From: Candidatus Gastranaerophilales bacterium | Lineage (GTDB): Bacteria > Cyanobacteriota > Vampirovibrionia > Gastranaerophilales > Gastranaerophilaceae | DNA: 64,000 nucleotides | NCBI GenBank assembly: GCA_944322665.1 | Contig: CALUPM010000001.1 | Span: 7,201 to 71,200, forward strand | Reading direction: 5' to 3' | In this document: positions 3,798 to 62,189 of the stretch, one piece after another | Layout of the letters: every line of letters begins with the position of its first letter | Position numbering within the stretch: position 1 is the first letter of the stretch | Notes under the pieces: model-generated | Databases searched by the model: none | What the model was told of the DNA's origin: nothing | Seen by the model: only the letters and a program-made list of their open reading frames with translations | Position numbers and translations under genes: made by a program

Positions 3798-3936
3798 TTA
3801 CCCTCACTAACCGGGTTTGGAAAGACCACCCAAATCCATGTTTTTACCTTTATATTTTAGAACAGTTATTTTTATTTTTCAAGTACATAAAAGTATAATT
3901 TATATATAAAGTTTTGTAACGAAATTAGCAAGTTGT

Positions 3937-3967
3937 GAAATTTGATAAAACTTATATACTTTATATA
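3937..3967 (+). promoter_or_regulatory. shared motif copy: GAAAT-N18-TTTATATA (drives the candidate sRNA)
   Basis: GAAAT at 3937-3941 and TTTATATA at 3960-3967. A back-to-back TTTATATA box on the minus strand at 3903-3910 faces gene 3519..3797. Confidence 0.5.
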
Positions 3968-3974
3968 TATGTAA

Positions 3975-4142
3975 GACGAAACGAAAGAGAGCAGCATAAA
4001 TAACCACGAGTGATATTAAGAGACATAAGTAAGAGAGATAGAGAAAAAAGAAAAGAGATTATCCGTTAAATAAATAAGAGAGATGTTTATTCCTTCCTTC
4101 CTAAAAAAAGTATAGCCCCTTAAAAAAGGGGCTTTTTCTTTT
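3975..4142 (+). ncRNA. candidate small RNA (purine-rich body, UUCCUUCCUUCC tract, intrinsic terminator)
   Basis: A full copy of the shared promoter motif (GAAAT-N18-TTTATATA, 3937-3967) points into a stretch with no ORF longer than 19 codons. The stretch ends at hairpin AGCCCCT/AGGGGCT plus T-run (4114-4142). The 5' end is inferred, not observed. Confidence 0.3.
4114..4142. terminator. bidirectional intrinsic terminator (pyk / candidate sRNA)
   Basis: AGCCCCT-TAAAAA-AGGGGCT flanked by A-run and T-run. Confidence 0.7.
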
Positions 4143-4167
4143 GTTTTAACATCGAATTTTTCTAAGA

Positions 4168-5610
4168 CTAGTTGGCAGATCCGATTGTGTGTATTTTAAT
4201 AAAATTTGTGCCGCCTACAAGAAGCTCGGGAACAGAACCTGAGAATATCACGGTATCGCCGTTTTTAAGCCCGAGTTTTTGTATCATAAATTTGTCTGCA
4301 CTCTGCAGTGCCGCACGGTCTATATTTCCGTCAAAATCAACTATAACAGGAAATACGCCTCTGTAAAGCTTCAAATCCCTGCAAATGTTTTTCTTCGGGC
4401 AGCAGGCGTAAATCGGAACGCTCAGACGGCCTTCTGATAAAAATTGTGCTGTAAATCCGCTTCCTGTAAGCGCCACAACTGCTTTGATATCCATTTTCTT
4501 TGACATATCTGCTATAGACATGCCTATTGCCATTGCCTGACTGTCTTTTTCTTCTTCTATCATTTTGCGCGGGAATTTGTTTTTGCGCATAAAAGGTGAA
4601 TTTTCTACGGTATCGGATATCTTTTTCATCATAGCAACTGCTTCTACAGGGTAAGCACCGGCAGCAGTTTCGCCTGACAGCATAATTGCATCAGTGCCGT
4701 CAAGAATTGCATTTGCAACGTCGCTGGTTTCAGCCCTTGTCGGAATCGGATTTTCTATCATGCTCTCAAGCATCTGGGTTGCGACAATTACGACTTTACG
4801 CTTGATATTTGCTTTTCTGATAATTGTCTTTTGGACAATCGGAACTTTTTCGGTCGAAATCTCAATGCCTAAATCCCCTCTTGCAACCATAATTCCGTCG
4901 GAAACTTCTATGATTTTATCTATGTTTTCGACTGCCTGTGGCTTTTCTATTTTTGAAATAATTTTGATGACGTTGTTATTGTAAGATTTTAAAAGTTCTC
5001 TCAACTGAACAACATCATCGGCATGCCTTACAAAAGAGAGCCCGAGATAGTCTACGTCATTTTCTGCTGCGAATTTAACGAACTTAATATCTCTTTCTGT
5101 CAGGACATCGATGCTGCCTGTTGAACCGGGAATATTTATACCTTTTCTCTGTTTTAAAAGCCCGTCTGTCAAAACTTTTGCGTAGATAACATCATCTTCA
5201 ACTTTTTGAACCTCAAGCTGAATTTTGCCGTCATCAATAAGAATCATTTCGCCTGATTTAACGTCATTGGCCATGCCTTTGTAATCAACAGGAATAATAT
5301 CTCCGGTCATTTCGTTCTGGTGGCGGAATTTAAGAACCTCGCCTTTCTTTAATTCAATCGGGTTGTCAAGACACCCGATTCTGATTTTCGGCCCCTGAAG
5401 GTCAAGAAGCACGGGAATTAAAGTCCCTTCTTCCTTTTCAATTTCACGGATGAATTTAAGATTTTGCTTGTGCATCTCTACATCACCGTGCGAAGAGTTC
5501 AATCTGAACATTGTTACACCTGTTTTATAAAGTGTACGTATCATTTCCTTTGTGTTGCTGGCAGGCCCGAGGGTTGCCACAATCTTTGTCATGTTAAAGT
5601 TTTCCATCAT
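4168..5610 (-). CDS. pyk: pyruvate kinase
   Basis: TKIVATLGPAS, MFRLNSSHG, MVARGDLGIE motifs. Typical length of 480 aa. Confidence 0.95.
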   Translation of the reverse strand: MMENFNMTKIVATLGPASNTKEMIRTLYKTGVTMFRLNSSHGDVEMHKQNLKFIREIEKEEGTLIPVLLDLQGPKIRIGCLDNPIELKKGEVLKFRHQNEMTGDIIPVDYKGMANDVKSGEMILIDDGKIQLEVQKVEDDVIYAKVLTDGLLKQRKGINIPGSTGSIDVLTERDIKFVKFAAENDVDYLGLSFVRHADDVVQLRELLKSYNNNVIKIISKIEKPQAVENIDKIIEVSDGIMVARGDLGIEISTEKVPIVQKTIIRKANIKRKVVIVATQMLESMIENPIPTRAETSDVANAILDGTDAIMLSGETAAGAYPVEAVAMMKKISDTVENSPFMRKNKFPRKMIEEEKDSQAMAIGMSIADMSKKMDIKAVVALTGSGFTAQFLSEGRLSVPIYACCPKKNICRDLKLYRGVFPVIVDFDGNIDRAALQSADKFMIQKLGLKNGDTVIFSGSVPELLVGGTNFIKIHTIGSAN

Positions 5611-5667
5611 CTTCCTCTTGCGGAAATCCGCTATTTATATAACTATCTAAAATAAACTTTAAAATAC

Positions 5668-5696
5668 TTTACAAAAATAAGTATTTTATTTATAAT
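5668..5696 (+). promoter_or_regulatory. sigma70-type promoter TTTACA-N17-TATAAT (SLH gene)
   Basis: Direct reading. Confidence 0.5.
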
Positions 5697-5752
5697 TCTA
5701 ATGTTATCATAAAAAAAAATCTTGTTGTAGTAAAGATGAGGAATTGAGATTT

Positions 5753-7024
5753 ATGAAAAACTTTTTAGCAACATTGACGGCATTATGCTTAACAGCATTC
5801 ATGGTCGTTCCGGCTTTCGCTTCCTCTAAAATTAATGACGTGAGCGACGGCTACTGGGCTCAGAAAGAAATCCTTGATGTGGTTTCAAACGACATCATGA
5901 ATCTTGATGAGAACAACAATTTTAATCCTGAAAAGGATGTTCCGAGAATCTGCTTTGTTAAGTCACTTTTGAAATTGTTATCAAATGACAATTTGAATGT
6001 TTCTATTTCAAATTCATTCTCGGATGTTGCTGCTGACGACAAAAATTATGATGATATTTTGCGTTCTCAGCAGTTAGGCCTTGTTTACGGCTATCCGGAC
6101 GGGACATTCAAGGCTTCAAAACTTATGACAAGAGCTGAAACACAGTCTGTAATCAGCCACATCACTCAGGACAAAGTCTCTGACACTTCTGCCCTTGCGT
6201 CTTTCTCTGATGCAAACAAAATTCCCTGCTGGGCAAAACAGGTTTACGCAAAAACTCTTGACTACGGTATTTACGTAAACTATCCGAACGAAAATGAACT
6301 TCGTCCGAATGACAACCTGACCAGAGCTGAAGCTGCTGTTCTTCTTTCAAGACTTAAGGCAAAGCTCGCTCTTGTTAAGAGAGAATACAAAGGTGAAGCT
6401 GTTGAACACTTGAAAGTTAAAAGAAATGCTCCGAACAACGAAGTTTATGTCCTTGAAAATTCTAACGTAATCAAAGAAGGTAACGTTCTTGAAGTTGCTT
6501 TCACTGACAAGTTCAGATCAGAAGAAGCTTCTGCAGGTCAGGCTGTTTACTTCGTAAACGAGGAGCCTATCTACACTGAAGAAGGAACTCTTATTGTTCC
6601 GGCAAATTCAAAATTCAACGGTTCTGTTGTAGCTATTGAAAACGAAAAATGGTTCAACAAAAATGCAAGAGTTTACGTTCAGTTGACAGAAATCGTTACT
6701 CCGGACGGCAAAACAACTTCTTTAAATGCTAAACCTTTCTACAAAAATTACGCATTAAAAGAAGGTCCGTGGATGACTGCAGGTAAATTGTTGCTCTATA
6801 CAGCAGGCGGTGCGGCTATCGGTACCGGTGCAGGTGTCGGCTTTGCATTCATTCCTGACCCTGTTAAAGTAGGTACAGGTGTTGCTATCGGTACTCCTGT
6901 AGGTGCGGGTGTCGGCCTTGTAACAGGTCTTGTAACTAAGGGGCTTAAATACCATGCAAAATCAGGTGAAGAAATTTATATAATTCTTCTTGATGATGCT
7001 GCTGTTGCAAAACAAGCTTTATAA
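5753..7024 (+). CDS. SLH-domain envelope protein with C-terminal glycine-zipper segment
   Basis: Signal peptide (VVPAFA/SSK). Three SLH-like repeats (SDGYWAQKEI..., FSDVAADDKNYDDI...YGYPDGTFKA, FSDANKIPCWAKQ...RPNDNLTRAEAAVLL). C-terminal AGGAAIGTGAGVGFAFIP...GTPVGAGVGLVTGLV. ATG 5753 sits behind GAGGAA; the track starts at TTG 5744. Confidence 0.85.
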   Translation: MKNFLATLTALCLTAFMVVPAFASSKINDVSDGYWAQKEILDVVSNDIMNLDENNNFNPEKDVPRICFVKSLLKLLSNDNLNVSISNSFSDVAADDKNYDDILRSQQLGLVYGYPDGTFKASKLMTRAETQSVISHITQDKVSDTSALASFSDANKIPCWAKQVYAKTLDYGIYVNYPNENELRPNDNLTRAEAAVLLSRLKAKLALVKREYKGEAVEHLKVKRNAPNNEVYVLENSNVIKEGNVLEVAFTDKFRSEEASAGQAVYFVNEEPIYTEEGTLIVPANSKFNGSVVAIENEKWFNKNARVYVQLTEIVTPDGKTTSLNAKPFYKNYALKEGPWMTAGKLLLYTAGGAAIGTGAGVGFAFIPDPVKVGTGVAIGTPVGAGVGLVTGLVTKGLKYHAKSGEEIYIILLDDAAVAKQAL

Positions 7025-8776: not shown

Positions 8777-10567
8777 TTATGCATACATTCCGCTGTTGAA
8801 CGGCATCATAAACGGGTTGTTAAAACTCATCGGGTTGTAGAATATCCCGCTCATACCTCCTGTAGCCGGATTTTTTAAAGATTGAAGCATATTAAGAATA
8901 TAATCAAGTTTTGCGATTGTGTTTTGGTATTTTTCGCTGTTGCCGGTTTCTGTTTTATCATCATTTTTATCTTCTGATTTCTTATCAGGATTGTCAGCAG
9001 GTTTTGTTTCGGAAGGTTTTTCTGCTGCTTGAGGATTTTGTGCTGCTCCTGATGTTTGAGAGGCTGCCTGTTGTGCGGAATATTGTGTCTGTGCATGAGT
9101 AGTTTCATCTGAAGAAGGAGTTCCTTCAGGCTTTGTAAGTTCTCTTGACTGTGAAGCTGTGCCGAGATCCCCTTGTTGATATGCTGTTACAACATTTTTG
9201 TAAGCTTTTTTAATGTCTTTGTTTTCTGCAGGATCCTGTTCGTATCTTGCTCTAGCAGTCCGGAGAACTTCTTCCAGTACCTCATCATTCTGTTGTGCCT
9301 GCAGCGCCAGTTGTTCCGCCGGTTTGTTTGTAGTCCTGTCCTGAAGCTGGTCAAGTTCTGATTTACCGACAACTTTTTTCATAGCTTTACCGGCAAGCCA
9401 GCTTGTCAGCAAACCAACGCCAAGACCTACAACAGCTCCGATTGCAGTTCCTACACCCGGTGCAACAGAACCTAACGCTGCACCTTTAGCTGCCCATGCT
9501 GCAGCTACTGCTGCAGTGCCGACTTTGGCTCCTATTGCGTAAGCCGCAACCTGAGCACCTGCTGTTGCAACAACACGTCCTGTCTGCTTAAGTGCCATTT
9601 CTGTACCTTTGCCTTCTCCTGGTTTTACAGGGTTGCCGTTTTCGTCGACCTGATCAAAGGTTTGTTTTGTTGCAATAATTTCCGGAACAGCGAGCGCAAG
9701 ATCTAAACTTACTGCTGTCAAAGCATTTGACCTTCCGAATTTTGCAATGGTTCTTAACTTAGAAGATTTGGTAAGTGCGGTATTAACGACTTCTTTACCT
9801 TTATTGTAGCCTGTTGCTTTTTTTACTCCGTTCCATACTTTTCCGCTTTTAGAAACCGGCTTCAAACTGCCTTTTGTTTTTTCAATATGAACTTTTTGAT
9901 TAGCGTCTGCAATTGCTTTGTCAATTTCTTTCATCTTATCGGCATAATCTTTGCCTTTAAGAGTTTTAGCTTCTCCGATTAGATGTCTTACATTATCATA
10001 GTATTTTGATTGATTAAACTGATTTAAGGCTTTTTTTGCATTATTAATCTGTTTTGCAAGTTTTTTGTCTGTAAGTTCAGTTAAAAATTTTTTTGCTTCT
10101 TGTTTGCTCATCCCTTGCGATTTCATAAAATCTGCAAGTGCCTGCTGCAATTCTCTGCCTTTTTGCATTTTAGCAGTGCCTGTAAGTTTTTTGTATTCTT
10201 TTGCGAGATTTCTTATATTTTCTGCCTTCTGGAGTTTTTGCAACTCCTGAGCCGGATTGCCTGTCATCGGACGGAATCTTCTTTCAAGCTCCTGTATTTC
10301 AAGATTGCGCTGAAAATTTGTGTATGATTCTCTAAAATTTGCGCCTTTCAAACTCTGCTCTGTGGCTTTTATATTATTCCATGTTCCTTTCGGGTCTTTC
10401 ATGTCCTGAAATATTGAAGGGGCTGTTCTTGCAGCTTTTTCAATCGCAATTGTTGCCGGAATAGTGCCGGGAGTAATAATAGAAATTTCTTCTTCTTCCG
10501 GTGTAAGACCCATTGCATAACGTGTTAATAATTTTACATCACTGTTTACTTTGATGCTGTCACTCAT
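8777..10567 (-). CDS. hypothetical 596-aa protein: coiled-coil, glycine-zipper membrane core, low-complexity N/M/P/G/F tail
   Basis: Long ORF with its own promoter motif (10603-10633). Core: GRVVATAGAQVAAYAIGAKVGTAAVAAAWAAKGAALGSVAPGVGTAIGAVVGLGVGLLTSWLAGKAM. Tail: NPATGGMSGIFYNPMSFNNPFMMPFNSGMYA. Paralogous to the next gene. Confidence 0.8.
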   Translation of the reverse strand: MSDSIKVNSDVKLLTRYAMGLTPEEEEISIITPGTIPATIAIEKAARTAPSIFQDMKDPKGTWNNIKATEQSLKGANFRESYTNFQRNLEIQELERRFRPMTGNPAQELQKLQKAENIRNLAKEYKKLTGTAKMQKGRELQQALADFMKSQGMSKQEAKKFLTELTDKKLAKQINNAKKALNQFNQSKYYDNVRHLIGEAKTLKGKDYADKMKEIDKAIADANQKVHIEKTKGSLKPVSKSGKVWNGVKKATGYNKGKEVVNTALTKSSKLRTIAKFGRSNALTAVSLDLALAVPEIIATKQTFDQVDENGNPVKPGEGKGTEMALKQTGRVVATAGAQVAAYAIGAKVGTAAVAAAWAAKGAALGSVAPGVGTAIGAVVGLGVGLLTSWLAGKAMKKVVGKSELDQLQDRTTNKPAEQLALQAQQNDEVLEEVLRTARARYEQDPAENKDIKKAYKNVVTAYQQGDLGTASQSRELTKPEGTPSSDETTHAQTQYSAQQAASQTSGAAQNPQAAEKPSETKPADNPDKKSEDKNDDKTETGNSEKYQNTIAKLDYILNMLQSLKNPATGGMSGIFYNPMSFNNPFMMPFNSGMYA

Positions 10568-10602
10568 AACTTTTCCTCTAAGATTTTTCCCCTGTTTATA
10601 TT

Positions 10603-10633
10603 TATATAAAGTGTTTTGTTTAAGAAAAATTGC
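10603..10633 (-). promoter_or_regulatory. shared motif copy: GCAAT-N18-TTTATATA upstream of 8777..10567
   Basis: Read on the minus strand. The box ends 35 nt before the ATG. Confidence 0.55.
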
Positions 10634-10646
10634 TTTAAAACGTGAA

Positions 10647-10685
10647 AAAGTACTAAGTTTTGTTAAGAACTTAGTACTTTCATCC
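10647..10685 (-). terminator. 13-bp-arm perfect hairpin separating the two Gly-zipper paralogues
   Basis: AAAGTACTAAGTT-N8-AACTTAGTACTTT, followed by a T-run on the minus strand. Confidence 0.7.
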
Positions 10686-10714
10686 CTAGGGTTGCAGGGG
10701 ATTTGGAGTTAAAC

Positions 10715-11551
10715 CTACATAAGGGTATTGAAATTACCGTAAGGGTTCGTGATATTGCCGCCTGTTAAATTCATATTGTTATTCTGTCCCGAAGCCTGCA
10801 TATAAGCCTGCTGGAGTTTTTGAAATTCTTCGTCATTTGCAAAACTGCCTCCGCCGTACGGGATTGTTGATGTATCTATTGTGAACGGGTTGTTTGAGCC
10901 TCCTGCAGCGGCTTGTTCTGTGGCTTTCTTTTCTGTGTATGATTTTCCTACGATGAATCTGCCAAGAAAATCACCTGCAACAAAGCCTACCATACCGCCT
11001 AAGAACGGAATTGGAATTATTGCCTGTGTAATTGCGCCCAGAAGCGTGCTGATACCCAGCCTTACGCCTGTTTTGGCAGTTTCTCCGGCTCCGGTCAGAA
11101 CCCCTTCATTTGCAGTTGCTTTTATTATGTTCGGCAGTTCAAACGCAAGAGTAAGTGCAGCTCCTATAAGCGGCATTCTTTTACCTAGAACTTTCCCGAC
11201 ACTTCCGAGTCTTGCCAGAAATTTTGATTTATTTGCGGTTTTTGCGGTTTCGCCGGCAGCTTTCCAGCCGTCTCTTAAATCAGGCCAGATGCTTGTGATA
11301 CTCTTTTTAGTTGCTTGCCAGAAGGAGCCGTTGTTTTCACTCAGCAGTTGTTGATGGGCTGTTGCTGCAGCTGTATTCCCCGCTTTAAATGCACCGGTAA
11401 ACCTGTCTTTAAATTTAAGAGCTTTGCCGGCTTCCCAACTTTTCCGGAACCCTTCGGAGTATGTATCAAATCCTGTTCCGAAAACAACGTAAGGATACAT
11501 TTTTGTGTATTTCCAAGCTGTACCTAAAGCACTATCTACAGTCACAGTCAT
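10715..11551 (-). CDS. hypothetical 278-aa paralogue of 8777..10567 (glycine-zipper core, N/G/P-rich tail)
   Basis: Shares LAFELPNIIKAT / LALAVPEIIAT and FLGRFIVGKS / LAGKAMKKVVGKS with its neighbour. Start moved to ATG 11551 (MTVTVDSAL, AGGT RBS) because the shared promoter motif (11585-11615) lies inside the longer track ORF. Confidence 0.75.
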   Translation of the reverse strand: MTVTVDSALGTAWKYTKMYPYVVFGTGFDTYSEGFRKSWEAGKALKFKDRFTGAFKAGNTAAATAHQQLLSENNGSFWQATKKSITSIWPDLRDGWKAAGETAKTANKSKFLARLGSVGKVLGKRMPLIGAALTLAFELPNIIKATANEGVLTGAGETAKTGVRLGISTLLGAITQAIIPIPFLGGMVGFVAGDFLGRFIVGKSYTEKKATEQAAAGGSNNPFTIDTSTIPYGGGSFANDEEFQKLQQAYMQASGQNNNMNLTGGNITNPYGNFNTLM

Positions 11552-11584: not shown

Positions 11585-11615
11585 TATATAAAATATTTTG
11601 CCTGATGAAAATTGC
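11585..11615 (-). promoter_or_regulatory. shared motif copy: GCAAT-N18-TTTATATA upstream of 10715..11551
   Basis: The box ends 33 nt before ATG 11551. It shares the extended ATGCGCAAT with the 24160-24190 copy. Confidence 0.55.
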
Positions 11616-11659
11616 GCATTCAAAAGTTTTTGTTACGAAATGTTACAAAGCCTGCGATA

Positions 11660-18148: not shown

Positions 18149-18177
18149 TTGAGAAATATGTAAATTTATGTTACAAT
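18149..18177 (+). promoter_or_regulatory. sigma70-type promoter TTGAGA-N17-TACAAT with TGn extension
   Basis: Direct reading. Followed by a leader of about 120 nt before ATG 18300. Confidence 0.5.
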
Positions 18178-18299: not shown

Positions 18300-19616
18300 A
18301 TGGATACTATTTTGTCACGCAAAAATTTGGTTATGTCAGGCTTAATTGAAAAGGCATTTTGTCTTTCTGTTATACTGGGAGTGGTTTGTTTGCAGGCGCT
18401 TGTACTGCCCGAACCAATTATGGCAGATGATGTTATTCTTGCTCATAACACTGCACCTGCTGTTGATGTCAAAGACCTGAAAGAAAAAATTCTGCTTGAA
18501 CTTTCGCCTGAAGTAAGAAAGAAAAAATTCAACGATTACATTAAAGAAAAATACCCCGAAGCAGTTATTACAGACGTTCAGGAAGGCGTTAAGCACATAA
18601 AACTCACAAACTACTATAACGGACGTCCGGTCAGAATTAATATTATAGAAGCAGACCTGAAAATTGCCAAAAATCTGGAGGTTATGCCGGTTCTTTCAAA
18701 CTCTGGCAGACTTCAGGGAAGGCGCACAATTACAACGATTGCTAAATCTAAAAATGCAATCGCCGCAATCAACGGAACTTACTTTAAATTTCAATCCGGT
18801 GTTCCTCTCGGAACTCTGATGATAGATGAAAAAGTTTATACAGGCCCTGTTTACGACAGGGTAGCAATGGGAATTTTTGATGACGGCTTTGATGTCGCAA
18901 GAGTTCAGCTTAATGCAAACATCGAAGGAAGCGGCGCAAAAGTCAAAATTGACAACATAAATCAGCCGAGAATGCTTTCAACGCATGTTCTTGTTTACAC
19001 TCCGGAGTGGGGCAGGTATTCTCCCTATGCTCCGAAGTACGGTATGAGTTTGAGGGTGGCGGACGGTAAGATTACAAAAGCCTCCGCCAACCCGATCGAT
19101 ATCCCTGAGAACGGTTACGTAATTTCCGGCCCGAAAAAGCTTCTTCAGCCGCTATTGAAAGATAAAGATGTGAAACTCAGCATAAAAACAACTCCGGAAT
19201 GGAATGGAGTAAAACATATTATTAGCGGCGGCCCGTATCTTGTTAAAAACGGTGAAGTTTTCGTTGATATGACAGCCCAGAAGCTCGGCGCAATCGGCGG
19301 GCGCAACCCCAGAACCGCTGTAGGATACACTTCTGATAATAATCTGATTTTGCTGACGGCAGACGGACGCGAAGGCAGTTCTATCGGTATGACTTTGATG
19401 GAGCTTGCGCGGTTTATGAAATCTCTCGGCTGCATAGGAGCTATTAACCTTGACGGAGGCGGTTCAACCGTCATGTATGTCAATGGTAATGTAGTAAACA
19501 AACCGCAGGCACGAGGCGGAATTCCGCTTTCAAATGCGCTTGTGCTCTCTGTTGTTGATGATGAAAAGGACGACAGCGGGACAGAAATTACGCAAAAAGA
19601 AGAAAATCACTCATAA
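18300..19616 (+). CDS. phosphodiester glycosidase family protein (DUF2233/NAGPA-like)
   Basis: AINGTYF and INLDGGGSTVMY signatures. N-terminal membrane anchor. Confidence 0.8.
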   Translation: MDTILSRKNLVMSGLIEKAFCLSVILGVVCLQALVLPEPIMADDVILAHNTAPAVDVKDLKEKILLELSPEVRKKKFNDYIKEKYPEAVITDVQEGVKHIKLTNYYNGRPVRINIIEADLKIAKNLEVMPVLSNSGRLQGRRTITTIAKSKNAIAAINGTYFKFQSGVPLGTLMIDEKVYTGPVYDRVAMGIFDDGFDVARVQLNANIEGSGAKVKIDNINQPRMLSTHVLVYTPEWGRYSPYAPKYGMSLRVADGKITKASANPIDIPENGYVISGPKKLLQPLLKDKDVKLSIKTTPEWNGVKHIISGGPYLVKNGEVFVDMTAQKLGAIGGRNPRTAVGYTSDNNLILLTADGREGSSIGMTLMELARFMKSLGCIGAINLDGGGSTVMYVNGNVVNKPQARGGIPLSNALVLSVVDDEKDDSGTEITQKEENHS

Positions 19617-22297: not shown

Positions 22298-23179
22298 TTA
22301 TGCTTGTTCATTTTCTTCAGGTCTCTTTATTTCAACGTCATATTCTTCCATTTTATTTAACAGAGCATCAAGGCTTGATGAAGTAAGAGTTACAGTTTTT
22401 GTTGTCGGCTCCGCATCTGAACCTTCAGCTGCGGGTACGGTTGTTTCAATTTCAACGCTTAATTCACCACCCGAAGTAATCGAAATGTTATTTGCCATTG
22501 CGGTTGCGCGTTCATTATCTACTTCTTGCTGAATTTCCTGTTTTTTGGCTCTTATATCTTCCTTGCTGTTAGATTTAATTTGAATGTCCTTACCGTTCAG
22601 ATCTTTAACTGTCGTGCTGTAAGTTCCATCAGAATTTACAGTAATACCTTCTTTTGCAAGTTCAAGTTTTTCTGATTCAAGCTTACGCTGCTGAACTTCT
22701 CTGACTTTTTCACTTTGTACGGCAGCTCTTGTTCCTTGTGTTTCAACAGACGCTTCCGGGTTAGTTTCGGGATTAGTTTCCGGCTGTTCTGTACCGCCGG
22801 CTCCGTCGGTTTTTTTCTGTGCTATAGCTCCAGCAAGGGCTCCTAATGTATTGAAAATCGTGCCAACCGTAGCTGCTGTAGTGCCGGCTCCGCCTCCGTA
22901 GCAGTCGCCGTATAATCCTCCCATAGGGTACATACCCATACCACCCATCATCATTGGATTGTACATGCCCATCATGCCGCCCATCATCATTGGATTGTAC
23001 ATGCCCATCATGCCGCCCATCATCATTTGAGAATATATGCTTGCGTCCATACCCATTCCCATCGTGCCAAAATTATTTATGTTAGTTTTTTCGGCATGAA
23101 TGTTGACATTAGGCGAACTGTCTAAATTCAATCTTCCTGTTGGTACTGTGTAATGATTTCGACCTATCATCCAAGACAT
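22298..23179 (-). CDS. hypothetical protein: NINNFG motif, Met/Gly-rich repeats, TM-like segment, acidic linker, C-terminal domain
   Basis: NIHAEKTNINNFG, then MMMGGMMGMYNPMMMGGMMGMYNPMMMGGMGMYPMGG, then TVGTIFNTLGALAGAIA. AAGGAG RBS. Lies 37 nt downstream of its paralogue. Confidence 0.75.
   Translation of the reverse strand: MSWMIGRNHYTVPTGRLNLDSSPNVNIHAEKTNINNFGTMGMGMDASIYSQMMMGGMMGMYNPMMMGGMMGMYNPMMMGGMGMYPMGGLYGDCYGGGAGTTAATVGTIFNTLGALAGAIAQKKTDGAGGTEQPETNPETNPEASVETQGTRAAVQSEKVREVQQRKLESEKLELAKEGITVNSDGTYSTTVKDLNGKDIQIKSNSKEDIRAKKQEIQQEVDNERATAMANNISITSGGELSVEIETTVPAAEGSDAEPTTKTVTLTSSSLDALLNKMEEYDVEIKRPEENEQA
22945..23030. repeat. perfect 36-bp tandem duplication (2 full copies plus 14 nt) inside the Met/Gly-rich coding region
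   Basis: CCATCATCATTGGATTGTACATGCCCATCATGCCGC at 22945-22980 and 22981-23016 are identical. A third copy begins at 23017. The unit encodes GGMMGMYNPMMM. Confidence 0.9.
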
Positions 23180-23216
23180 TTTTATCTTCTCCTTGCGGGT
23201 GTTATTAGTGTGCTAT

Positions 23217-24159: not shown

Positions 24160-24190
24160 TATATAAAGTATATAACTGTTTATATATTGC
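24160..24190 (-). promoter_or_regulatory. shared motif copy: GCAAT-N18-TTTATATA upstream of 23217..24131
   Basis: The box ends 28 nt before the ATG. TATACTTTATATATAT is identical to the 3952-3967 copy. Confidence 0.55.
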
Positions 24191-24280
24191 GCATGTTTGT
24201 ATATTTTGTTACAATACTTAATATTTATAGAAGCTATGTATTTTATATATGCCCGAAATTAATGACTTTTATTCGCTTTG

Positions 24281-33338: not shown

Positions 33339-33367
33339 TTTATACTCTCGAATTATATATTATATAT

Positions 33368-33397: not shown

Positions 33398-33437
33398 TTT
33401 TTTTAGCGGCGTAATTTACAAAACTTAATAAAAAAGA

Positions 33438-37719: not shown

Positions 37720-37747
37720 GTATCGGCTATATCCGGCTGTTTCTTTA
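37720..37747 (-). promoter_or_regulatory. sigma28 (FliA/SigD)-like promoter TAAA-N16-GCCGATAC upstream of the 682-aa gene
   Basis: The minus strand reads TTAAAGAAACAGCCGGATATAGCCGATACC. The consensus is TAAA-N15-GCCGATAA. The site lies about 47 nt before the ATG. Confidence 0.35.
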
Positions 37748-37775
37748 ATAAATATCCCCAATTTATTACAATTTG

Positions 37776-51795: not shown

Positions 51796-52317
51796 TTAAC
51801 CCTGTCCCGAGTACTGCGGTGTGAAATCCTGTGCCGAAGATTTTGTCATGCTTTCTGCAGCTTTTTCCTGTTCTTCGATAAGTCTCAGTCTGGATTCTAT
51901 ATTTGTTTTTCTGATAGTCAGGCTTTCTTCCTTGCTCTTGAGCGGTTCAAGCTGCGCTTCACGATAATACTCAAATTGATTAGCCCAGATTGATTGAGCC
52001 TGCGCATATCTATATTGTGCTTCTTGTTGTGCATAGTTAAAAGCTTGCACTGCAGCAGAATCTAATTTTGTTAATGAGGTTGGATCGTTAGGATTAACCC
52101 CGTAATGCTCTTCTAAACCGGCCCATATACTAGTCTGAGTTTGCTGACGCAATGCAAGGTCTGCGTTCCTCTGCTGGGACGCAAGCATCTTTTCCATCTG
52201 ACCCATCTGTTTGGTCACTTGGTTTAACTGCGACATTATGGATGTCAACTGGTGCTGCAGTTGAATACGCATTCGCGCTGATTGCATTTTTAGGTATGTA
52301 CCGGTTAGGAAACCCAT
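51796..52317 (-). CDS. hypothetical Gln-rich coiled-coil protein (173 aa)
   Basis: Heptad-like Q/L/M-rich sequence. Internal repeat TSIWAGLEEHY / QSIWANQFEYY. Shared promoter motif at 52348-52378. Confidence 0.7.
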   Translation of the reverse strand: MGFLTGTYLKMQSARMRIQLQHQLTSIMSQLNQVTKQMGQMEKMLASQQRNADLALRQQTQTSIWAGLEEHYGVNPNDPTSLTKLDSAAVQAFNYAQQEAQYRYAQAQSIWANQFEYYREAQLEPLKSKEESLTIRKTNIESRLRLIEEQEKAAESMTKSSAQDFTPQYSGQG

Positions 52318-52347
52318 GTTAAACCTCTATTTTTAGTCCTCGTTAAA

Positions 52348-52378
52348 TATATAAAGTATATTTTTATATGAAAATTGA
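52348..52378 (-). promoter_or_regulatory. shared motif copy: TCAAT-N18-TTTATATA upstream of 51796..52317
   Basis: The box ends 30 nt before the ATG. CAATTTTCAT is shared with the 11585-11615 copy. Confidence 0.5.
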
Positions 52379-52507
52379 CGTTAGATGTTTATAATTTTAC
52401 ATAACTTAACAAAATTGTTACAATTTATTATATTTTTCTTTACAATTGAAAAAAATGTGTTTTATTGATAAACTTTATTAGTATTAATTTTAAGAAAGGC
52501 AGAGCAC

Positions 52508-58135: not shown

Positions 58136-58172
58136 AAATCCCGTCTTTATAAGGCGGGATTTTGTTGTTTTA
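58136..58172 (+). terminator. intrinsic terminator directly after rpsG
   Basis: AAATCCCGTC-N7-GGCGGGATTT followed by TTGTTGTTTT. Confidence 0.75.
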
Positions 58173-59771
58173 TTCATAAATAATCTTTAAATCCTCTTCA
58201 ACGTTTGAGGCCTGATGAATGCCGTAAATATTTTTGAGAGCGCTCTGGATATTAGGATTTATTACATAAGGCGGGCACAAAGTCAGAAAAATCTTTTTAG
58301 CGCCGGAGTTATGAAGATTTATTATATTTGATACAGAAGGAGGGTCGCATTTTGTAAAGAAAATGCTTAATCTGTCTGATTGTATGTCGATTTTTGAAAA
58401 TATTTTTTCCATAATTTCAAATACCGCAGGCAGGTTGTTTACAAGATTTATGAAAAGTTCATTATCCTTTCCGCTGCTATGAGAGAAGGTAATTACAAAC
58501 GTATCCGGCGTAAGGCGTTTAAATAATTTTCTAAAATATTCGTCCTGAGTTCCTGAAAAATCTGACATTCCGATAATTATAAGATTTTTTATTTTGAAAT
58601 TATTAAATTCATTACAGATATTGTCCAGTTTTCCGTCAAGTTCTTTTTCTGCGTATCCGACTGTGGTTGAGGGCATTTCCCTGCCTTTTGTAAAGCCTTT
58701 TGAAGTAAGAGAGGCTTCAATAAGAGGTGAGTAGTCGTTGTTTTTAATTTTTATAACCCCTTTAGGCGCCATATCTTCTCCGGAGAACAGTTTTCCGCGG
58801 TAAAGATAGTCAATATGCGGAAAAGTGTTCTTTGTAAGCAGAATAGCGCCAGGAAATGTTGCAAAATCTACTATGCAATTAGTGAAACAGCTTCCGTAGT
58901 GGCCTTTGAGGGTCGGGAAATCTTGAAATCTTTCAAGCGCATGCGCAATTAAAAGATCAGAGTGGGTATAAACATCAATATCAATATTTGTAGTATTTTC
59001 AAGAACTTCATACAGGCTTTGAAGATTTGAACCTGATACCAGAAGCGCCTTGGCCGGTTTTGTAGAGCGGGAAACTTCGCGCTTAAGAATTGAACCGTAT
59101 GTTTCTTTCTGTGCCTTTACAAGCATTTTAACAATTTCTGTGTCTGTTGCAGATATAGAATCTATAATACGCTTAATTTTTACCGACGCAATGCGCTGAA
59201 AATTAAGGATGTTTAAGCCTTCCATCATCTCTTTTAAGGCTGCCGAATCAGATTTGCCATACTCTTTAAGTTTAAGAAGATTTGTACAGATGCTTTTTAT
59301 CGAAAGTATAAGGATTTCCCTCAATGTTTTTTGCCTTAGTGAAAGCTTTTTGTAGTTTTCAAGAAAGGCTTTCTCGCCTTCTCTGATAATTTCACTGAGC
59401 GTCATTTCAGGGCTTAAACGTGGAGATAATTTTAAATCTTCGCATTTTATGTTTTTAGATGTGCAGAAATTTTGGTATTCTTTTCTTGCATATAGAAGTT
59501 TTGAATAGATTTTGCTTATTATATCAAGAAGCTGTTCGTGAGAATATTCGGGTGTCGCAATAAGCGATATCACACCGTACATAACGGTTTCTTTATTCTC
59601 AAAATAAGCAATTTTAAGTTCTTCAGCTTTCAATTCGTAAAAAGCAAGCCGGCATGTAAAAATAAGTATAATTTCCTGAATTGCGCGGATTTCAGGAGAA
59701 ATTGAGCAGTTTCCCCTTGCAACGCACTCGTTATAATCTGTTCCTTCTGTGCTGTATTTGTTGAAAAACAT
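58170..59771 (-). CDS. hybrid-cluster-protein (Hcp/prismane) family protein, divergent
   Basis: ALLVSGSNLQSLYEVLE...IDVYTHSDLLIAHA...LKGHYGSCFTNC...FPGAILLTKN is collinear with the Hcp core. The N-terminal Cys cluster is reduced to ECVARGNC. Confidence 0.65.
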   Translation of the reverse strand: MFFNKYSTEGTDYNECVARGNCSISPEIRAIQEIILIFTCRLAFYELKAEELKIAYFENKETVMYGVISLIATPEYSHEQLLDIISKIYSKLLYARKEYQNFCTSKNIKCEDLKLSPRLSPEMTLSEIIREGEKAFLENYKKLSLRQKTLREILILSIKSICTNLLKLKEYGKSDSAALKEMMEGLNILNFQRIASVKIKRIIDSISATDTEIVKMLVKAQKETYGSILKREVSRSTKPAKALLVSGSNLQSLYEVLENTTNIDIDVYTHSDLLIAHALERFQDFPTLKGHYGSCFTNCIVDFATFPGAILLTKNTFPHIDYLYRGKLFSGEDMAPKGVIKIKNNDYSPLIEASLTSKGFTKGREMPSTTVGYAEKELDGKLDNICNEFNNFKIKNLIIIGMSDFSGTQDEYFRKLFKRLTPDTFVITFSHSSGKDNELFINLVNNLPAVFEIMEKIFSKIDIQSDRLSIFFTKCDPPSVSNIINLHNSGAKKIFLTLCPPYVINPNIQSALKNIYGIHQASNVEEDLKIIYE

Positions 59772-59772
59772 A

Positions 59773-60009
59773 TTACTCCTTCAATCCTCTCTTAAAATAA
59801 TCTATGATATCGTCTGATTCGTATAGTCTGACACCTTTTTCTCTGTCTTCAAGAAAAGGCACCTGAGATTTTCCGCCGATTTTTTGAAGATTGTCGTAAT
59901 TTTCTGGCTCAGACACGTCAAGTTTATTGTATTCTATGTTATTTTCATTCAAAAAATTCATAACTTTTCTGCAGTAAGGACAGCTTTCCAGTATGTATAA
60001 GTCAGCCAT
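59773..60009 (-). CDS. glutaredoxin-like protein
   Basis: CPYC active site. 78 aa. Stop lies 1 nt before the Hcp-like start, so likely an operon. Confidence 0.85.
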   Translation of the reverse strand: MADLYILESCPYCRKVMNFLNENNIEYNKLDVSEPENYDNLQKIGGKSQVPFLEDREKGVRLYESDDIIDYFKRGLKE

Positions 60010-60115
60010 GTTTTATCTCCTTTTCTTCTTTAATTTTATTTGTTAATTAATTTTTTATATTCTCTGACCGGTTTATAAGATTGCATATATATAATTTTGT
60101 TATAGAATTTAAGTT

Positions 60116-61240
60116 ATGGAGAGAAAAAACATACTTGTTGTTTTCGGAACAAGGCCGGAGGTTATAAAACTTGCGCCGGTAATTCTTGAGCTTAGAAAAT
60201 ATCCCGAACGGTTTAATGTAATCGTCTGCAATACAGAACAGCAGAAGGAACTTTCAAATCAGACACTTTCTTATTTCAATCTGAAAGCGGATTTAAACCT
60301 TGACTGTATGAAGCCTGACCAGTCGCTATTAGAGGTTCAGACTAGAATTTTAACCGCACTGAACAGGGTTTTTAATGCACATAAAATTGATGCAACAATT
60401 GTTCAGGGAGACACAATGACTGTTTTGTGCGCGGCTCTTGCAAGTTTTTATAACAAAATTCCGGTTTTTCATGTTGAGGCAGGATTAAGATCTTATGATA
60501 TTTATGAACCTTTTCCGGAAGAAATTATGCGCCAGATGACCTCCCGTGTGACTGCGCTTAATTTTGCGCCGACAGAAAAAAATAAACAGGCGCTTTTGAA
60601 AGAAAATATTTCTGAAAAAACAATATTTGTGACGGGAAACACGGTAATTGATGCGCTTTTCTGCCTGTCAGAAGAAACTCTAAATAAAAGCGCGGCATTT
60701 TATAAGAACAACAACATTGAAATTAATGACAGACTCGTTTTAATAACCGCCCACAGACGTGAAAACCACGGAGAACGTATCGACAGAATAATCTCTGCAA
60801 TAGAATTTCTGGCGTCAAAATATACATACCACACATTTATAATCCCTGTTCATCCTAATCCGAATGTCAAAGACAAGATTTACGGCAGGCTCAGCGGGTA
60901 TGTGAATATAAAACTTATGGCACCTCTGGATTACCCGAATCTTGTTTATTTAATGAAAAATGCAAAACTTATTCTGACAGATTCCGGCGGAATTCAGGAG
61001 GAAGCGCCGTCTTTCGGCTGTCCGACGCTGGTTATGCGTTACGAAACAGAACGTCAGGAAGGAATTGATGCCGGCGTTTCGGTTCTTGTCGGAGCTGATT
61101 ATGACAAAATCCTTGAATGCAGCGAAAAAATCCTTTCAAATTCTTTTGATTCAACAAGACTAAAGGCTGTAAACCCGTACGGCGACGGCAAAGCCGCCGA
61201 AAGAATCAAAAAATTTATTGAAGAATATTTCAAGCTTTAA
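60116..61240 (+). CDS. wecB: UDP-N-acetylglucosamine 2-epimerase (non-hydrolysing)
   Basis: VVFGTRPEVIKLAPV, VQGDTMT, HVEAGLRS, TDSGGIQEEAPSFG. Confidence 0.93.
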   Translation: MERKNILVVFGTRPEVIKLAPVILELRKYPERFNVIVCNTEQQKELSNQTLSYFNLKADLNLDCMKPDQSLLEVQTRILTALNRVFNAHKIDATIVQGDTMTVLCAALASFYNKIPVFHVEAGLRSYDIYEPFPEEIMRQMTSRVTALNFAPTEKNKQALLKENISEKTIFVTGNTVIDALFCLSEETLNKSAAFYKNNNIEINDRLVLITAHRRENHGERIDRIISAIEFLASKYTYHTFIIPVHPNPNVKDKIYGRLSGYVNIKLMAPLDYPNLVYLMKNAKLILTDSGGIQEEAPSFGCPTLVMRYETERQEGIDAGVSVLVGADYDKILECSEKILSNSFDSTRLKAVNPYGDGKAAERIKKFIEEYFKL

Positions 61241-61250
61241 AATAGTAATA

Positions 61251-61277
61251 AAACCGTCAATAACAGACGGTTTTATA
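61251..61277 (+). terminator. intrinsic terminator after wecB
   Basis: AAACCGTC-AATAACA-GACGGTTT followed by T. Confidence 0.65.
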
Positions 61278-61348
61278 CGGAAAATTCGGCCTGTACGGCG
61301 CAATGTTTGAACTATTTGCACCGGTGTTTGTAATTACTATATAAGTTT

Positions 61349-62005
61349 TTATTTCATAGACATTTTTTGTAAACTTCTTATTGTCTTTGCTCTTTGCGTG
61401 ATATTTGCAATCCGTGCTTTTGCAAGGTTTTCTCTAATTTTGTTGTCTATTCTGGCAGATGTAACAATATCAGACTTGTATTCTTTATAGAATTTTATTT
61501 CACGTTCGGTAAGATCGTTTTTGTAAGTAATACGCGCATCTTTCTCCGCAGACTTTCTGAAACTGCCTGCAGCAGCACATATCAGGATAAACGCCGCTGC
61601 TATCCATCCTATTTGCTTTTTTGAAATTCCGTCGCTTACAACAACCGGAGGAGCCGCAGGCGTGTCAAAAATTACATCTGTTCCGGCAGCATCTATGCCC
61701 TGAATATAAATATTTACCCCGTTATTTGAGGTGTTTTCAACTATCACGTTATCTATATTTCCGGCATTAATATACTTTGTGTCAAGATTTAGAGAAGTTG
61801 TGATATTTTTCAACTCCAACAAAAGCGTTCCGTCTGCAGGTACCGATTTTTTTATATTTGCAACCCTGTCAGTGCGCAAAACGACATTGTAGCTGTCCGG
61901 CGAAACGCCCTCAATTATTATTGAATTAAGGCTGTTATCAGAAGCAAAAGCCGTTGATGCCAGCATTGTTATTATCAGTATTAAATTAACAAACAGTTTT
62001 TTCAT
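61349..62005 (-). CDS. hypothetical secreted/membrane protein with AMIN-like N-terminal domain
   Basis: Signal peptide (ASTAFA). A beta-rich domain (IIIEGVSPDSYNVVLRTDR...LLLELKNIT), a TM segment, and a basic C-terminus. Confidence 0.55.
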   Translation of the reverse strand: MKKLFVNLILIITMLASTAFASDNSLNSIIIEGVSPDSYNVVLRTDRVANIKKSVPADGTLLLELKNITTSLNLDTKYINAGNIDNVIVENTSNNGVNIYIQGIDAAGTDVIFDTPAAPPVVVSDGISKKQIGWIAAAFILICAAAGSFRKSAEKDARITYKNDLTEREIKFYKEYKSDIVTSARIDNKIRENLAKARIANITQRAKTIRSLQKMSMK

Positions 62006-62158
62006 ATTTCCTCAATATTTCCCCAATCTGTTTTCACATTTAAAGCATATATGTTTCAAAGTCAAATGACATCAACCATAAGGACGTATTCACTCAATCA
62101 ATGGATTTATATTTTACGACTGTTTATGTAAACAAATGTTACAAAAAAAAGCCATGCT

Positions 62159-62189
62159 GAAATTAATAAGATTTAAAATTTTTTATATA
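62159..62189 (+). promoter_or_regulatory. shared motif copy: GAAAT-N18-TTTATATA upstream of 62219..62581
   Basis: The box ends 29 nt before the ATG. Confidence 0.5.

Follow-up and report, generated by a model that had tools for sequence, protein, structure and literature searches.

This locus raises the question of whether seven transcription units scattered over 64,000 nucleotides share a non-canonical promoter and form one co-regulated gene set. The window, i.e., the whole 64,000-nucleotide stretch that was analyzed, stems from a Candidatus Gastranaerophilales MAG and belongs to the non-photosynthetic Melainabacteria, uncultured gut relatives of the cyanobacteria. The original prediction had listed seven sites composed of a block G[C/A]AAT, a spacer of 18 nt and a box TTTATATA, and all seven were found where they had been placed.

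Specificity of the Core Motif in the Window

Exact matches to GMAAT-N18-TTTATATA were compared with 100 dinucleotide shuffles, and a weight matrix trained exclusively on sites from other species was run on the window with 100 Markov shuffles as background. Five exact matches were present versus 0.00 expected: GAAAT opens the sites at 3937-3967 (+; matrix score 33.9) and 62159-62189 (+; 31.2), and GCAAT those at 10603-10633 (-; 27.0), 11585-11615 (-; 27.1) and 24160-24190 (-; 36.9). The box by itself occurred 22 times versus 5.4 expected. As predicted, the site at 52348-52378 (-; 32.4) is a TCAAT variant. The last site, described as one nucleotide shorter, fits equal spacing better and reads GCAAT-N18-TTATAATA at 33367-33397 (-; 17.4); its orthologues carry GCAAT-N18-TTATTATA or GCAAT-N18-TTTATATA. 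These seven sites were the best seven matches in the window, with the score dropping to 13.1 at the eighth, while the maximum in the shuffles averaged 10.1 and reached 19.8 at its highest. The variant site, which precedes an EF-hand gene, is therefore marginal on score alone (17.4 versus the shuffle peak of 19.8), and its support comes from conservation in orthologues. A matrix scan of 20 kb flanking the window returned no further promoter sites.

The four housekeeping promoters named in the original prediction were confirmed as TTGACA/TTGCAA/TTTACA/TTGAGA-N17-TTAAAT/TATAAT/TATAAT/TACAAT, and the shared motif indeed has no TTGACA-like hexamer at 17 nt. While canonical promoters are thus present in the same window, no conserved TTG hexamer was found 16-18 nt from the box at the motif sites. 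The flanks said to be common to several sites also matched. The box ends 28-39 nt 5' of the start codon, with 28-35 nt to the ATG in the window's six coding cases as had been noted, or directly 5' of the conserved body of a small RNA.

Target Genes

Six of the units encode proteins which, apart from the EF-hand protein, belong to no Pfam or NCBIfam family, in line with the orphan status claimed for them. The site at 10603-10633 precedes the gene of a 596-aa orphan protein (8777-10567, -), predicted to be all-helical (pLDDT 61.6), to contain a hydrophobic helical hairpin of the Gly-zipper type and to be disordered in its C-terminal third. Its weak paralogue of 278 aa (10715-11551, -) follows the site at 11585-11615. 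The alignment of the original prediction would have put the upstream block at 10646-10681 (-); this is instead the hairpin that terminates the 278-aa gene (AAAGUACUAAGUU...AACUUAGUACUUU plus a U run), and it shows compensatory changes in L008, L010 and L012. An operon at 22298-24131 (-) encodes two orphan proteins (304 and 293 aa), both with an N-terminal NINNFG motif, and its second gene has its own ribosome-binding site and no own promoter. The further coding targets are a 286-aa protein with a C-terminal EF-hand pair (32478-33338, -), a 173-aa orphan protein predicted as a single long antiparallel helical hairpin (51796-52317, -; pLDDT 86) and a 120-aa Gly/Cys-rich orphan protein (62219-62581, +). 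No significant structural relatives were found for the predicted 596-aa and 173-aa models. The proposal of an envelope, matrix or filament programme found no support in these results.

The remaining target, downstream of 3937-3967, had been suspected to be non-coding, and no ORF was found on its transcribed strand. It is a candidate for a new small RNA of about 110-165 nt that is conserved and ends in a terminator (3974-4137, +, with the 5' end inferred). Alignment across species revealed a conserved core, CACGAGAGAUAUU...GAGAUUAUCCGUUAAAUAA...AUUCCUUCCUUCCUA, and the 3' end is marked by an intrinsic terminator at 4114-4133 followed by a T run, which reads as a terminator on both strands. A search of Rfam with this RNA returned no family.

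Conservation across Species and Copies in Phages

The comparison set comprised 24 related loci with 464 kb in total. Each of the 57 matrix matches in this set preceded an orthologue of one of the seven targets, none was off target, and conservation upstream of orthologues held for each of the seven targets in other species. The 18-nt spacing and the orientation towards the gene were kept without exception. Both blocks and their spacing persist at 29-45% protein identity while the letters of the spacer drift. The small RNA site recurs in loci L001-L012, and the TCAAT of the 173-aa promoter is GCAAT in L018-L020. In the family-weighted matrix, T never occurs at position 2 of the first block, and the conserved stretch spans -20 to -3. 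This numbering, here and below, assumes a transcription start about 7 nt past the box TTTATATA.

The complete composite promoter, including the upstream repeats described below, was also found before a gene in the phage contigs L025, L026, L046, L067, L112 and L138. In L046, the one contig examined, structural-type ORFs flank the small promoter-bearing gene, which is by itself on the opposite strand. Its family occurs with the same promoter in L067 and L112, and probably also in L025 and L026, at their cut ends. No family was retrieved for the gene product in a PHROG search. The promoter, taken by itself, would assign these phages to Gastranaerophilales hosts.

The original prediction of a genuine shared non-canonical promoter marking a co-regulated set is supported by this conservation in orthologues and by the constant spacing and orientation, as far as sequence comparison can tell. 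The GCAAT-N18-TTTATATA-type motif is very probably a functional shared promoter that defines a regulon. Because this unusual promoter is shared, kept across species and copied by phages, we infer that the seven scattered genes, six orphan-protein units and one small RNA, form a previously undescribed co-regulated set, whose members would be co-expressed.

HLR1-Like Repeats Upstream of the Core

A third element had been missed by the original prediction. At six of the seven promoters, TGTAA(A/C) is repeated in tandem every 10 bp, with the center near -62. These repeats resemble HLR1, defined as (G/T)TTACA(T/A)(T/A)-N2-(G/T)TTACA(T/A)(T/A) and activating when centered at -66 to -45 (PMC6525291). 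HLR1 matches of at least 14/16 numbered 19 in the window versus 6.8 ± 2.5 expected, and their density in the regulon promoter zones was 21 times that in other intergenic DNA. The element of the small RNA promoter (3903-3920, +; TATATAAAGTTTTGTAAC) matches at 15/16 on the opposite strand, with its center at about -62. Matches of 15/16 were also found for the 278-aa gene (11629-11649, -; TTTGTAAC-AT-TTCGTAAC) and the 120-aa gene (62125-62145, +; TATGTAAACAAATGTTAC). Those of the NINNFG operon (24198-24225, -; ..TTAAGTATTGTAAC..) and the EF-hand gene (33415-33432, -; TTTATTAAGTTTTGTAAA) reach 14/16 and recur in orthologues. The 173-aa gene has three TGTAA-type repeats with a period of 10-11 bp (52396-52434, -; 15/16 and 14/16).

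The center lies at -62.5/-63.5, or at -59.5 in the opposite orientation, in six target families, and its position at the small RNA promoter is kept in 12 of 12 species. In the EF-hand orthologues of L014 and L015, the repeat is displaced 10 bp further upstream and so stays on the same helix face. The repeats are AT-rich. They occur at other window promoters too (5658-5675, 18157-18174 and 37765-37782), and the 596-aa promoter lacks an HLR1-like element, with the terminator hairpin upstream in its place. With this composition and distribution, the repeats are therefore neither specific to the core nor required by it.

The repeats point to an OmpR-family response regulator such as an RpaB homologue. 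Melainabacteria, including gut Gastranaerophilales, were reported to possess homologues of RpaA, RpaB and NblS of unknown role (PMC3787301, PMC4040986). We rate the chance that an RpaB-type regulator binds here as even. If it does, RpaB could have a function in a lineage that does not photosynthesize. As a tentative but real alternative, the repeats may serve RpaA or another OmpR- or NarL-type regulator, or act as a generic AT-rich UP-like element. The sequence TTGTAAC is enriched window-wide, genes' interiors included (36 versus 9.9 expected), HLR1-like matches are found at unrelated promoters, a NarL-type regulator and a hybrid kinase are encoded about 2 kb beyond the 120-aa target, and no RpaB gene was detected in the roughly 460 kb searched. 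Against these observations stand the agreement with the published 8+2+8 definition at 14-16/16 positions, in a location within the activating window described for HLR1, the retention of the element across species with a shift of one helical turn, and the RpaB homologues reported in this order (PMC3787301, PMC4040986).

Possible Readers of the Core and Proposed Promoter Model

The odds that the core is read by an alternative sigma factor are slightly below even. A search of roughly 460 kb for sigma factor or OmpR-family regulator genes returned none. Since the -10 part is like an ordinary TATAAT-type element, the primary sigma factor could suffice. It would act on TATATA/TATAAT without a -35 element, and GCAAT, possibly with the ATAC flank, would be bound by a dedicated DNA-binding activator or repressor, by which the regulon is determined, in a class-II arrangement comparable to NtcA/PhoB. 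This possibility, which we regard as somewhat doubtful, agrees with the exact TATAAT at the window's EF-hand site and with the use of the promoter by phages, which suits a factor normally present in the cell. It is also favored by the conservation from -20 to -3, a stretch that exceeds what a sigma factor contacts at -10 and may take in the site of another protein. However, GCAAT is a single block of 5-6 bp that is neither repeated nor part of a dyad, an unusual site for a dimeric regulator, and an invariant 18 nt between it and the box would be expected if one polymerase-bound subunit touched both at once.

An ECF-type sigma factor could instead read TGTAAC as -35 and GCAAT as -10, which would make TTTATATA a conserved part of the 5' untranslated RNA. 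TGTAAC and GCAAT are 16-17 nt apart at five window sites, and TGTAAC-N16/17 with a short -10 block resembles B. subtilis sigma-X/W-type promoters. This reading is highly improbable, as the spacing is 27 nt in the EF-hand orthologues of L014 and L015, the 596-aa promoter has only a terminator hairpin and no TGTAAC, the repeats are found in either orientation, and conservation is seen in the RNA downstream of the box and not in the N18 that separates the box from GCAAT. Finally, chance in AT-rich intergenic DNA, or descent from a duplicated promoter cassette or mobile element, would suit the two pairs of weakly paralogous targets and certain identical flanks, but is already contradicted by the empty shuffles, the absence of off-target matches in 464 kb, the retention of blocks in orthologues despite diverging spacers, and the unrelated targets (small RNA, EF-hand, 173-aa, 120-aa) that share the blocks alone and differ in their spacers.

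As a whole, we moderately favor a composite promoter specific to Gastranaerophilales, with membership in the regulon of six mRNA units for orphan proteins and one small RNA being defined by the core. First, with the assumed start, a block G[C/A]AAT(T) occupies -37 to -32. Second, it is followed by a spacer of exactly 18 nt and free sequence. Third, an extended AT-rich block, (w)ATAC-TTTATATA-nnTA, spans -20 to -3 and would hold the -10 element TATATA (TATAAT in the variant). Fourth, in six of the seven promoters, (T)TGTAA(A/C) recurs two or three times as a direct repeat every 10 bp, centered at -60 to -63. RNA polymerase would read both core blocks jointly via a specificity subunit unlike the reader of TTGACA-N17-TATAAT, i.e., an alternative sigma factor or the primary sigma factor held by a GCAAT-bound factor. 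An OmpR-family response regulator would bind the repeats and activate from a class-I position; the likeliest candidate would be the RpaB homologue reportedly retained by Melainabacteria.

Comparison with Known Regulatory Systems

RpaB/HLR1-activated cyanobacterial promoters include those of the PSI genes and isiA in Synechocystis (PMC6525291). The upstream element fits their two imperfect 8-nt direct repeats, 2 nt apart, lies within the RpaB activating range, and occurs in a sister group of the cyanobacteria reported to keep RpaB and NblS. In contrast, the organism is non-photosynthetic, the putative regulon comprises orphan-protein genes and a small RNA instead of photosynthesis genes, the core GCAAT-N18-TTTATATA is outside the described HLR1 system, and one member has no HLR1-like element.

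Alternative sigma regulons (sigma-28/FliA, TAAA-N15-GCCGATAA; B. subtilis sigma-E/G/K) are similar in that two short blocks near -35 and -10 are rigidly spaced, the start codon follows after a short, constant interval, the units are monocistronic and scattered, and a housekeeping -35 is absent. However, the core consensus fits none of the described sigma consensus sequences compared, 20 nt separate GCAAT from the TATATA hexamer (18 nt from TTTATA), and the -10 block is housekeeping-like.

PhoB pho-box and NtcA type-2 promoters likewise lack TTGACA, have a good -10 element and carry a conserved block unlike a sigma site in the -35 region, with response-regulator-type direct repeats upstream. 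In pho-box promoters, though, the repeats themselves stand in for the -35 element, whereas here the -35 region is taken up by GCAAT, a distinct block that is not repeated, and the repeats are found two turns farther upstream. The gene in L046 is similar to phage morons with host-type promoters, being a lone small opposite-strand gene with its own complete promoter inside a co-oriented structural-type block; it differs in that its product has no PHROG family and its promoter is a lineage-specific composite.

A bipartite motif precedes seven transcription units in the window

In the window, which has a G+C content of 38% and encodes ordinary bacterial housekeeping genes, the pattern GMAAT-N18-TTTATATA was found five times (0.00 expected), and the box TTTATATA by itself 22 times (5.4 expected). 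By exact look-up, the proteins of the window belong to clusters in which the named members are Candidatus Gastranaerophilales MAGs. The core motif, G[C/A]AAT-N18-box, precedes a candidate small RNA (site 1, 3937-3967(+)), genes encoding proteins of 596 aa (site 2, 10603-10633(-)) and 278 aa (site 3, 11585-11615(-)), the NINNFG operon (304 + 293 aa; site 4, 24160-24190(-)), a 173-aa gene (site 5, 52348-52378(-)), a 120-aa Gly/Cys-rich gene (site 6, 62159-62189(+)) and a 286-aa EF-hand gene. The sites of the original prediction were present, including the TCAAT variant at site 5, and the distance of 28-35 nt between the end of the box and the start codon was confirmed in the six coding cases. 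The EF-hand site, described as one nucleotide shorter, was present as well, and is better aligned with the 18-nt spacing of the other sites, which gives GCAAT-N18-TTATAATA at 33367-33397(-). The four promoters that had been called canonical are indeed canonical.

A weight matrix over positions -38 to -2, trained solely on the sites of other species, was run across the window. The seven sites obtained the seven highest scores, from 36.9 down to 17.4, and the next best match scored 13.1. The mean maximum score of Markov shuffles (n = 100) was 10.1, and none was above 19.8. Since their scores exceed the shuffle maximum, six sites lie far outside the null. The EF-hand site is marginal on score, and the case for it rests on sequence conservation.

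The motif is conserved as a phylogenetic footprint

Identity to the 596-aa protein falls gradually from 69% to 28% among its homologues, all of which are gut MAG proteins. One genome per species was scanned, which yielded 13 loci, mostly from Gastranaerophilales/Melainabacteria MAGs, with a few from gut MAGs that are unclassified or carry another label. At these loci, GCAAT-N18-(C)TTTATATA precedes the 596-aa orthologues down to 29% protein identity; the same motif also precedes the adjoining 278-aa orthologue and occupies the position orthologous to the non-coding site 1. In further loci, retrieved via NINNFG and 173-aa homologues, it is likewise found ahead of the NINNFG operon and the EF-hand, 173-aa and 120-aa genes. 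The EF-hand orthologues carry GCAAT-N18-TTATTATA in loci L014 and L015 and the canonical GCAAT-N18-TTTATATA in locus L016. Conservation of the motif 5' of orthologues in related genomes, which had been proposed as a check, was thus found for all seven targets.

The sequence between the blocks varies from species to species and from target to target. Since the spacers vary while the blocks persist, the similarity is a phylogenetic footprint and not inherited. With the full matrix, 57 matches scoring >16 were found in 464 kb from 24 loci, all of them 5' of orthologues of the seven targets, at 26-39 nt from the ATG or ahead of the small RNA; off-target matches were absent from these 464 kb. In the same species, the full-matrix scan of the 20 kb adjoining the window revealed no new sites. 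The motif is very probably a functional shared promoter that defines a regulon.

The core promoter differs from the sigma consensus sequences compared

A family-weighted matrix was built from 45 aligned sites. The first block reads G(0.88) C/A(0.65/0.35) A A T(0.95) T(0.78), with T never at position 2, the second block runs well past the octamer as (w)A-T-A-C-TTTATATA-n-n-T-A, and the spacing between the blocks is invariant. The -10 hexamer is TATAAT-like, being TATATA at six sites and TATAAT at the EF-hand site. When TATATA is taken as the hexamer, GCAAT lies at -37 to -33, 20 nt upstream of it; when TTTATA is taken instead, the spacer is 18 nt. A TTGACA-like -35 element was not detected, as the 45 aligned sites have no conserved TTG hexamer 16-18 nt upstream of the -10 element, in agreement with the earlier observation that such a box is missing at 17 nt. 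Site 1 alone has an overlapping TTGTGA-N16-TATACT, which is not kept in its orthologues.

The rigid geometry at about -35/-10, the short fixed leader and the lack of a housekeeping -35 element argue for a polymerase-bound specificity subunit, which would contact both core blocks together. We rate the chance that an alternative sigma factor reads the core slightly below even. The other reading, in which the primary sigma factor acts with a factor bound at GCAAT, would fit the resemblance of the -10 element to TATAAT and the extended conservation from -20 to -3. An ECF reading, with TGTAAC as -35 and GCAAT as -10 element at a fixed 16-17 nt, was rejected, since this distance is 16-17 nt at some sites and 27 nt in L014 and L015, TGTAAC is absent from the 596-aa promoters, and the element is found in both orientations. 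The sigma-28 (FliA) signature TAAA-N15(+/-1)-GCCGATAA is absent from all seven sites, the aligned sites have no GG/GC pair of the sigma-54 type (GG at -24, GC at -12; TGGCAC-N5-TTGC), and an archaeal-style TATA box either gave no match or is inapplicable to bacteria. Thus, the core consensus is unlike the sigma-70 -35 element, sigma-28, sigma-54 and ECF, the sigma consensus sequences compared.

An HLR1-like element lies upstream of the core

Upstream of GCAAT, a third element is present, which consists of two or three (T)TGTAA(A/C) units repeated directly every 10 bp, e.g., TGTAAACATTTGTAAATTTTTGTAAA in locus L017. The distance from the repeats to GCAAT is 17 nt at most sites and 27 nt in the EF-hand orthologues of L014 and L015. 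HLR1, to which the OmpR-family regulator RpaB binds, is defined as two imperfect 8-nt direct repeats (G/T)TTACA(T/A)(T/A) with 2 nt between them, and RpaB activates from HLR1 centred at -66 to -45 (PMC6525291). The reverse complement of the repeats, (G/T)TTACA(T/A)(T/A)-NN-(G/T)TTACA(T/A)(T/A), matches this published definition, with 14-16 of 16 positions agreeing in every target family but the 596-aa one, where 11-13 agree.

Matches to HLR1 of >=14/16 numbered 19 in the window, compared with 6.8 ± 2.5 expected. Seven matches in the window reach >=15/16, all intergenic and four of them at regulon promoters. Per position-strand, the density of HLR1 matches was 7.4e-3 in regulon promoter zones, 3.5e-4 in other intergenic DNA and 2.7e-5 in coding DNA. 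With the transcription start placed 7 nt after the box, the element would be centred at -62.5/-63.5 in the promoters of the small RNA (12/12 species) and of the NINNFG, 173-aa, 120-aa and EF-hand units, and at -59.5, in the opposite orientation, in most 278-aa promoters. The 596-aa promoters lack an HLR1-like element. An apparent upstream block at site 2 proved to be the terminator hairpin of the upstream gene, which is kept by compensatory changes, and not a promoter element.

The repeats behave as a separate protein site: their position can move by one helical turn, both orientations are seen, and one member does without them. Binding of an RpaB-type regulator to them is a proposal for which we see an even chance. 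Homologues of RpaA, RpaB and NblS have been reported in Gastranaerophilales, where their role without photosynthesis is not known (Di Rienzi et al. 2013, PMC3787301; Soo et al. 2014, PMC4040986). No OmpR-family gene was found in the ~460 kb of fetched loci, in which tblastn with E. coli OmpR matched receiver domains alone.

HLR1-like elements (15/16) also overlap the -35 element or spacer of two canonical promoters in the window, at 5658-5675(+) for an SLH-domain gene (5744-7024) and at 18157-18174(-) for a NAGPA-domain gene (18300-19616). In Synechocystis, HLR1 over the -35 element or spacer is associated with repression by RpaB. Due to these elements on canonical promoters, the putative RpaB-type regulon may extend beyond the GCAAT/TTTATATA set. 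Another HLR1-like element (15/16) is located at 37765-37782, further upstream of the lone sigma-28-like match in the window (TAAA-N16-GCCGATA, 37721-37747(-); 1 versus 0.05 expected), which precedes a 682-aa orphan gene (35626-37674(-)). The heptamer TTGTAAC occurs 36 times in the window, with 9.9 expected, and within genes too; by this window count it was called over-represented genome-wide, beyond promoter elements.

Viral contigs carry the composite promoter

Exact-pattern scans of viral contigs gave mostly chance matches. Six viral contigs reach matrix scores of 30-37 and also have an HLR1-like repeat (14-15/16), spaced as expected from the core: L025 (80-116(-)), L026 (75-111(-)), L046 (5976-6012(-)), L067 (1625-1661(-)), L112 (274-310(+)) and L138 (988-1024(+)). 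Their composite promoter consists of the HLR1-like repeat and GGCAAT-N18-TTTATATA, and the contigs have a G+C content of 31-33%. In L046, L067 and L112, it lies ahead of a conserved gene of ~95 aa (MLFT...RFGNNFIA), the start of which, first residues only, is also present at the contig end in L025 and L026; in L138, it lies ahead of an unrelated 166-aa gene. A PHROG family was found for neither the ~95-aa nor the 166-aa phage proteins. L025 has terminase-like and other structural-type ORFs, as read by eye from the translations.

In L046, the 95-aa gene stands alone on the opposite strand amid co-oriented ORFs, an arrangement that, by analogy, is the layout of a moron. Because phage contigs carry the full composite promoter ahead of genes, the promoter would thus be a portable, self-sufficient unit working with host factors.

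Site 1 precedes a candidate small RNA

The view of one target as non-coding was upheld, as no ORF is present on the transcribed strand downstream of site 1. The candidate small RNA, at 3974-4137(+), is conserved in L001-L012, L021 and L022. Across 12 species, it is 111-167 nt long and finishes with a G+C-rich hairpin followed by a T run (4114-4133 plus tail); this terminator is bidirectional and also serves the convergent pyk gene. Among its invariant parts are CACGAGAGAUAUU, GAGAUUAUCCGUUAAAUAA, AAGAGAGA(U) as a purine repeat and the CU-rich AUUCCUUCCUUCCUA. The CU-rich stretch UUCCUUCCUUCC is anti-Shine-Dalgarno-like, with several AAGAGAGA repeats alongside. In the clade of the window, an insert of ~35-45 nt lies within a predicted long-range helix (ACG..GAUA / UAUC.CGU).

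As its pairing candidates are invariant, the small RNA shows no covariation. It belongs to no Rfam family: the best match on 3900-4200 reached 25 bits, compared with a gathering score of 55, and spans the terminator only, and anywhere in the window only tRNA-Leu passes the gathering score. Predicted pairing of the CU-rich stretch with the regulon mRNA leaders was not enriched (mean of -9.9 versus -9.2 kcal/mol, p = 0.23). In our view, this is a new candidate small RNA that shares the promoter of the six coding units.

The best duplex predicted for the CU region in the window is with the hcp leader (59772-59806, -19.1 kcal/mol; gene 58170-59771(-)) and spans the ribosome-binding site of this hybrid-cluster protein gene. 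A 92-aa ORF (3519-3797(-)) with a promoter-like sequence at 3882-3854(-) is divergent from the small-RNA promoter and is called as a gene in the near-identical same-species contigs L021/L022. The -35 element of this ORF is probably the conserved TTGCAAGTA/TTGAAAAA, which lies upstream of site 1.

Target proteins and leaders

The downstream genes had been described as orphans. This applies insofar as the regulon proteins have no Pfam/NCBIfam family, with the exception of the EF-hand pair. No sequence relatives were found in the PDB, and PHROG gave no informative match, the sole matches being weak and to families without assigned function. The 596-aa protein is a weak paralogue of the 278-aa protein (E = 0.003), and the NINNFG pair shares the N-terminal motif only. 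For the 596-aa family, AlphaFold predicts (pLDDT 61.6) a protein that is helical throughout, in which a hydrophobic hairpin of Gly-zipper helices is combined with a disordered tail; a Foldseek search with this model returned nothing at E < 1. For the 173-aa family, a long helical hairpin is confidently predicted (pLDDT 86). Its structural neighbours are generic coiled coils only (best CT398, E = 0.04), and a relationship between the 173-aa and 682-aa proteins was not found. Sec signal peptides were not seen when the N-termini were inspected by eye. Since sequence and structure searches, including those for families, PDB relatives and structural neighbours, gave no informative relatives, the suggested envelope, matrix or filament programme is unsupported, but may still hold.

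An (A/C)ACGAGG / ACGGGGAAA / CACGAGAGA motif is located 5-15 nt past the box in several leaders and in the small RNA (10580-10597, 52330-52345, 62194-62205 and 3990-4012, and in orthologues), and could be a shared RNA-level signal. CUCCAAAUCCCCUGCAACCCUAGGG, at 10682-10714(-) between the 278-aa stop codon and the terminator, is also present in L001-L012 upstream of the 596-aa gene; it is kept at the DNA level where the flanking proteins are ~30% identical, and forms a small CCCU/AGGG hairpin. A two-component system adjoins the 120-aa gene: ~0.4-6 kb beyond it, partly past the window end (10715-16260 in L023/L024), a 483-aa protein, a NarL/GerE-type response regulator, a hybrid histidine kinase and an FHIPEP (FlhA-like) export gate are encoded. 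The FHIPEP gene indicates that a flagellar or type-III export apparatus is present in the organism, at least in part.

Implications of a putative RpaB regulon outside photosynthesis

Gastranaerophilales, an order of gut bacteria within the non-photosynthetic Melainabacteria/Vampirovibrionia (sister to cyanobacteria), are common in the gut and, to our knowledge, without a cultured representative. Literature on promoters, regulons, sigma factors, transcriptomes or small RNAs of this lineage was not found. Seven loci that otherwise resist annotation are joined by a precise, highly specific DNA signature as a single regulatory unit; the signature also predicts a new small RNA and offers a means to recognise phages of the lineage.

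The link to RpaB is the part that could matter beyond Gastranaerophilales. RpaB/NblS in a non-photosynthetic lineage has been unexplained since 2013 (PMC3787301). As the HLR1-like element ties the regulon to RpaB/NblS, this puzzle becomes testable by binding and expression experiments. In the fullest scenario, which is speculative and rather unlikely, an NblS-RpaB system that Melainabacteria kept from the ancestor shared with cyanobacteria would act via HLR1 at -62 on the lineage-specific GCAAT-N18-TTTATATA core, possibly with a dedicated sigma factor, and switch on orphan membrane-active or secreted proteins and the small RNA, while phage morons would join the same switch. If true, this would be the first RpaB regulon assigned outside photosynthesis, and would show the job of RpaB before photosynthesis evolved. 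That a regulon is marked by a bipartite promoter and a response-regulator site is a well-known principle; the kind of system is familiar, and this member of it is new.
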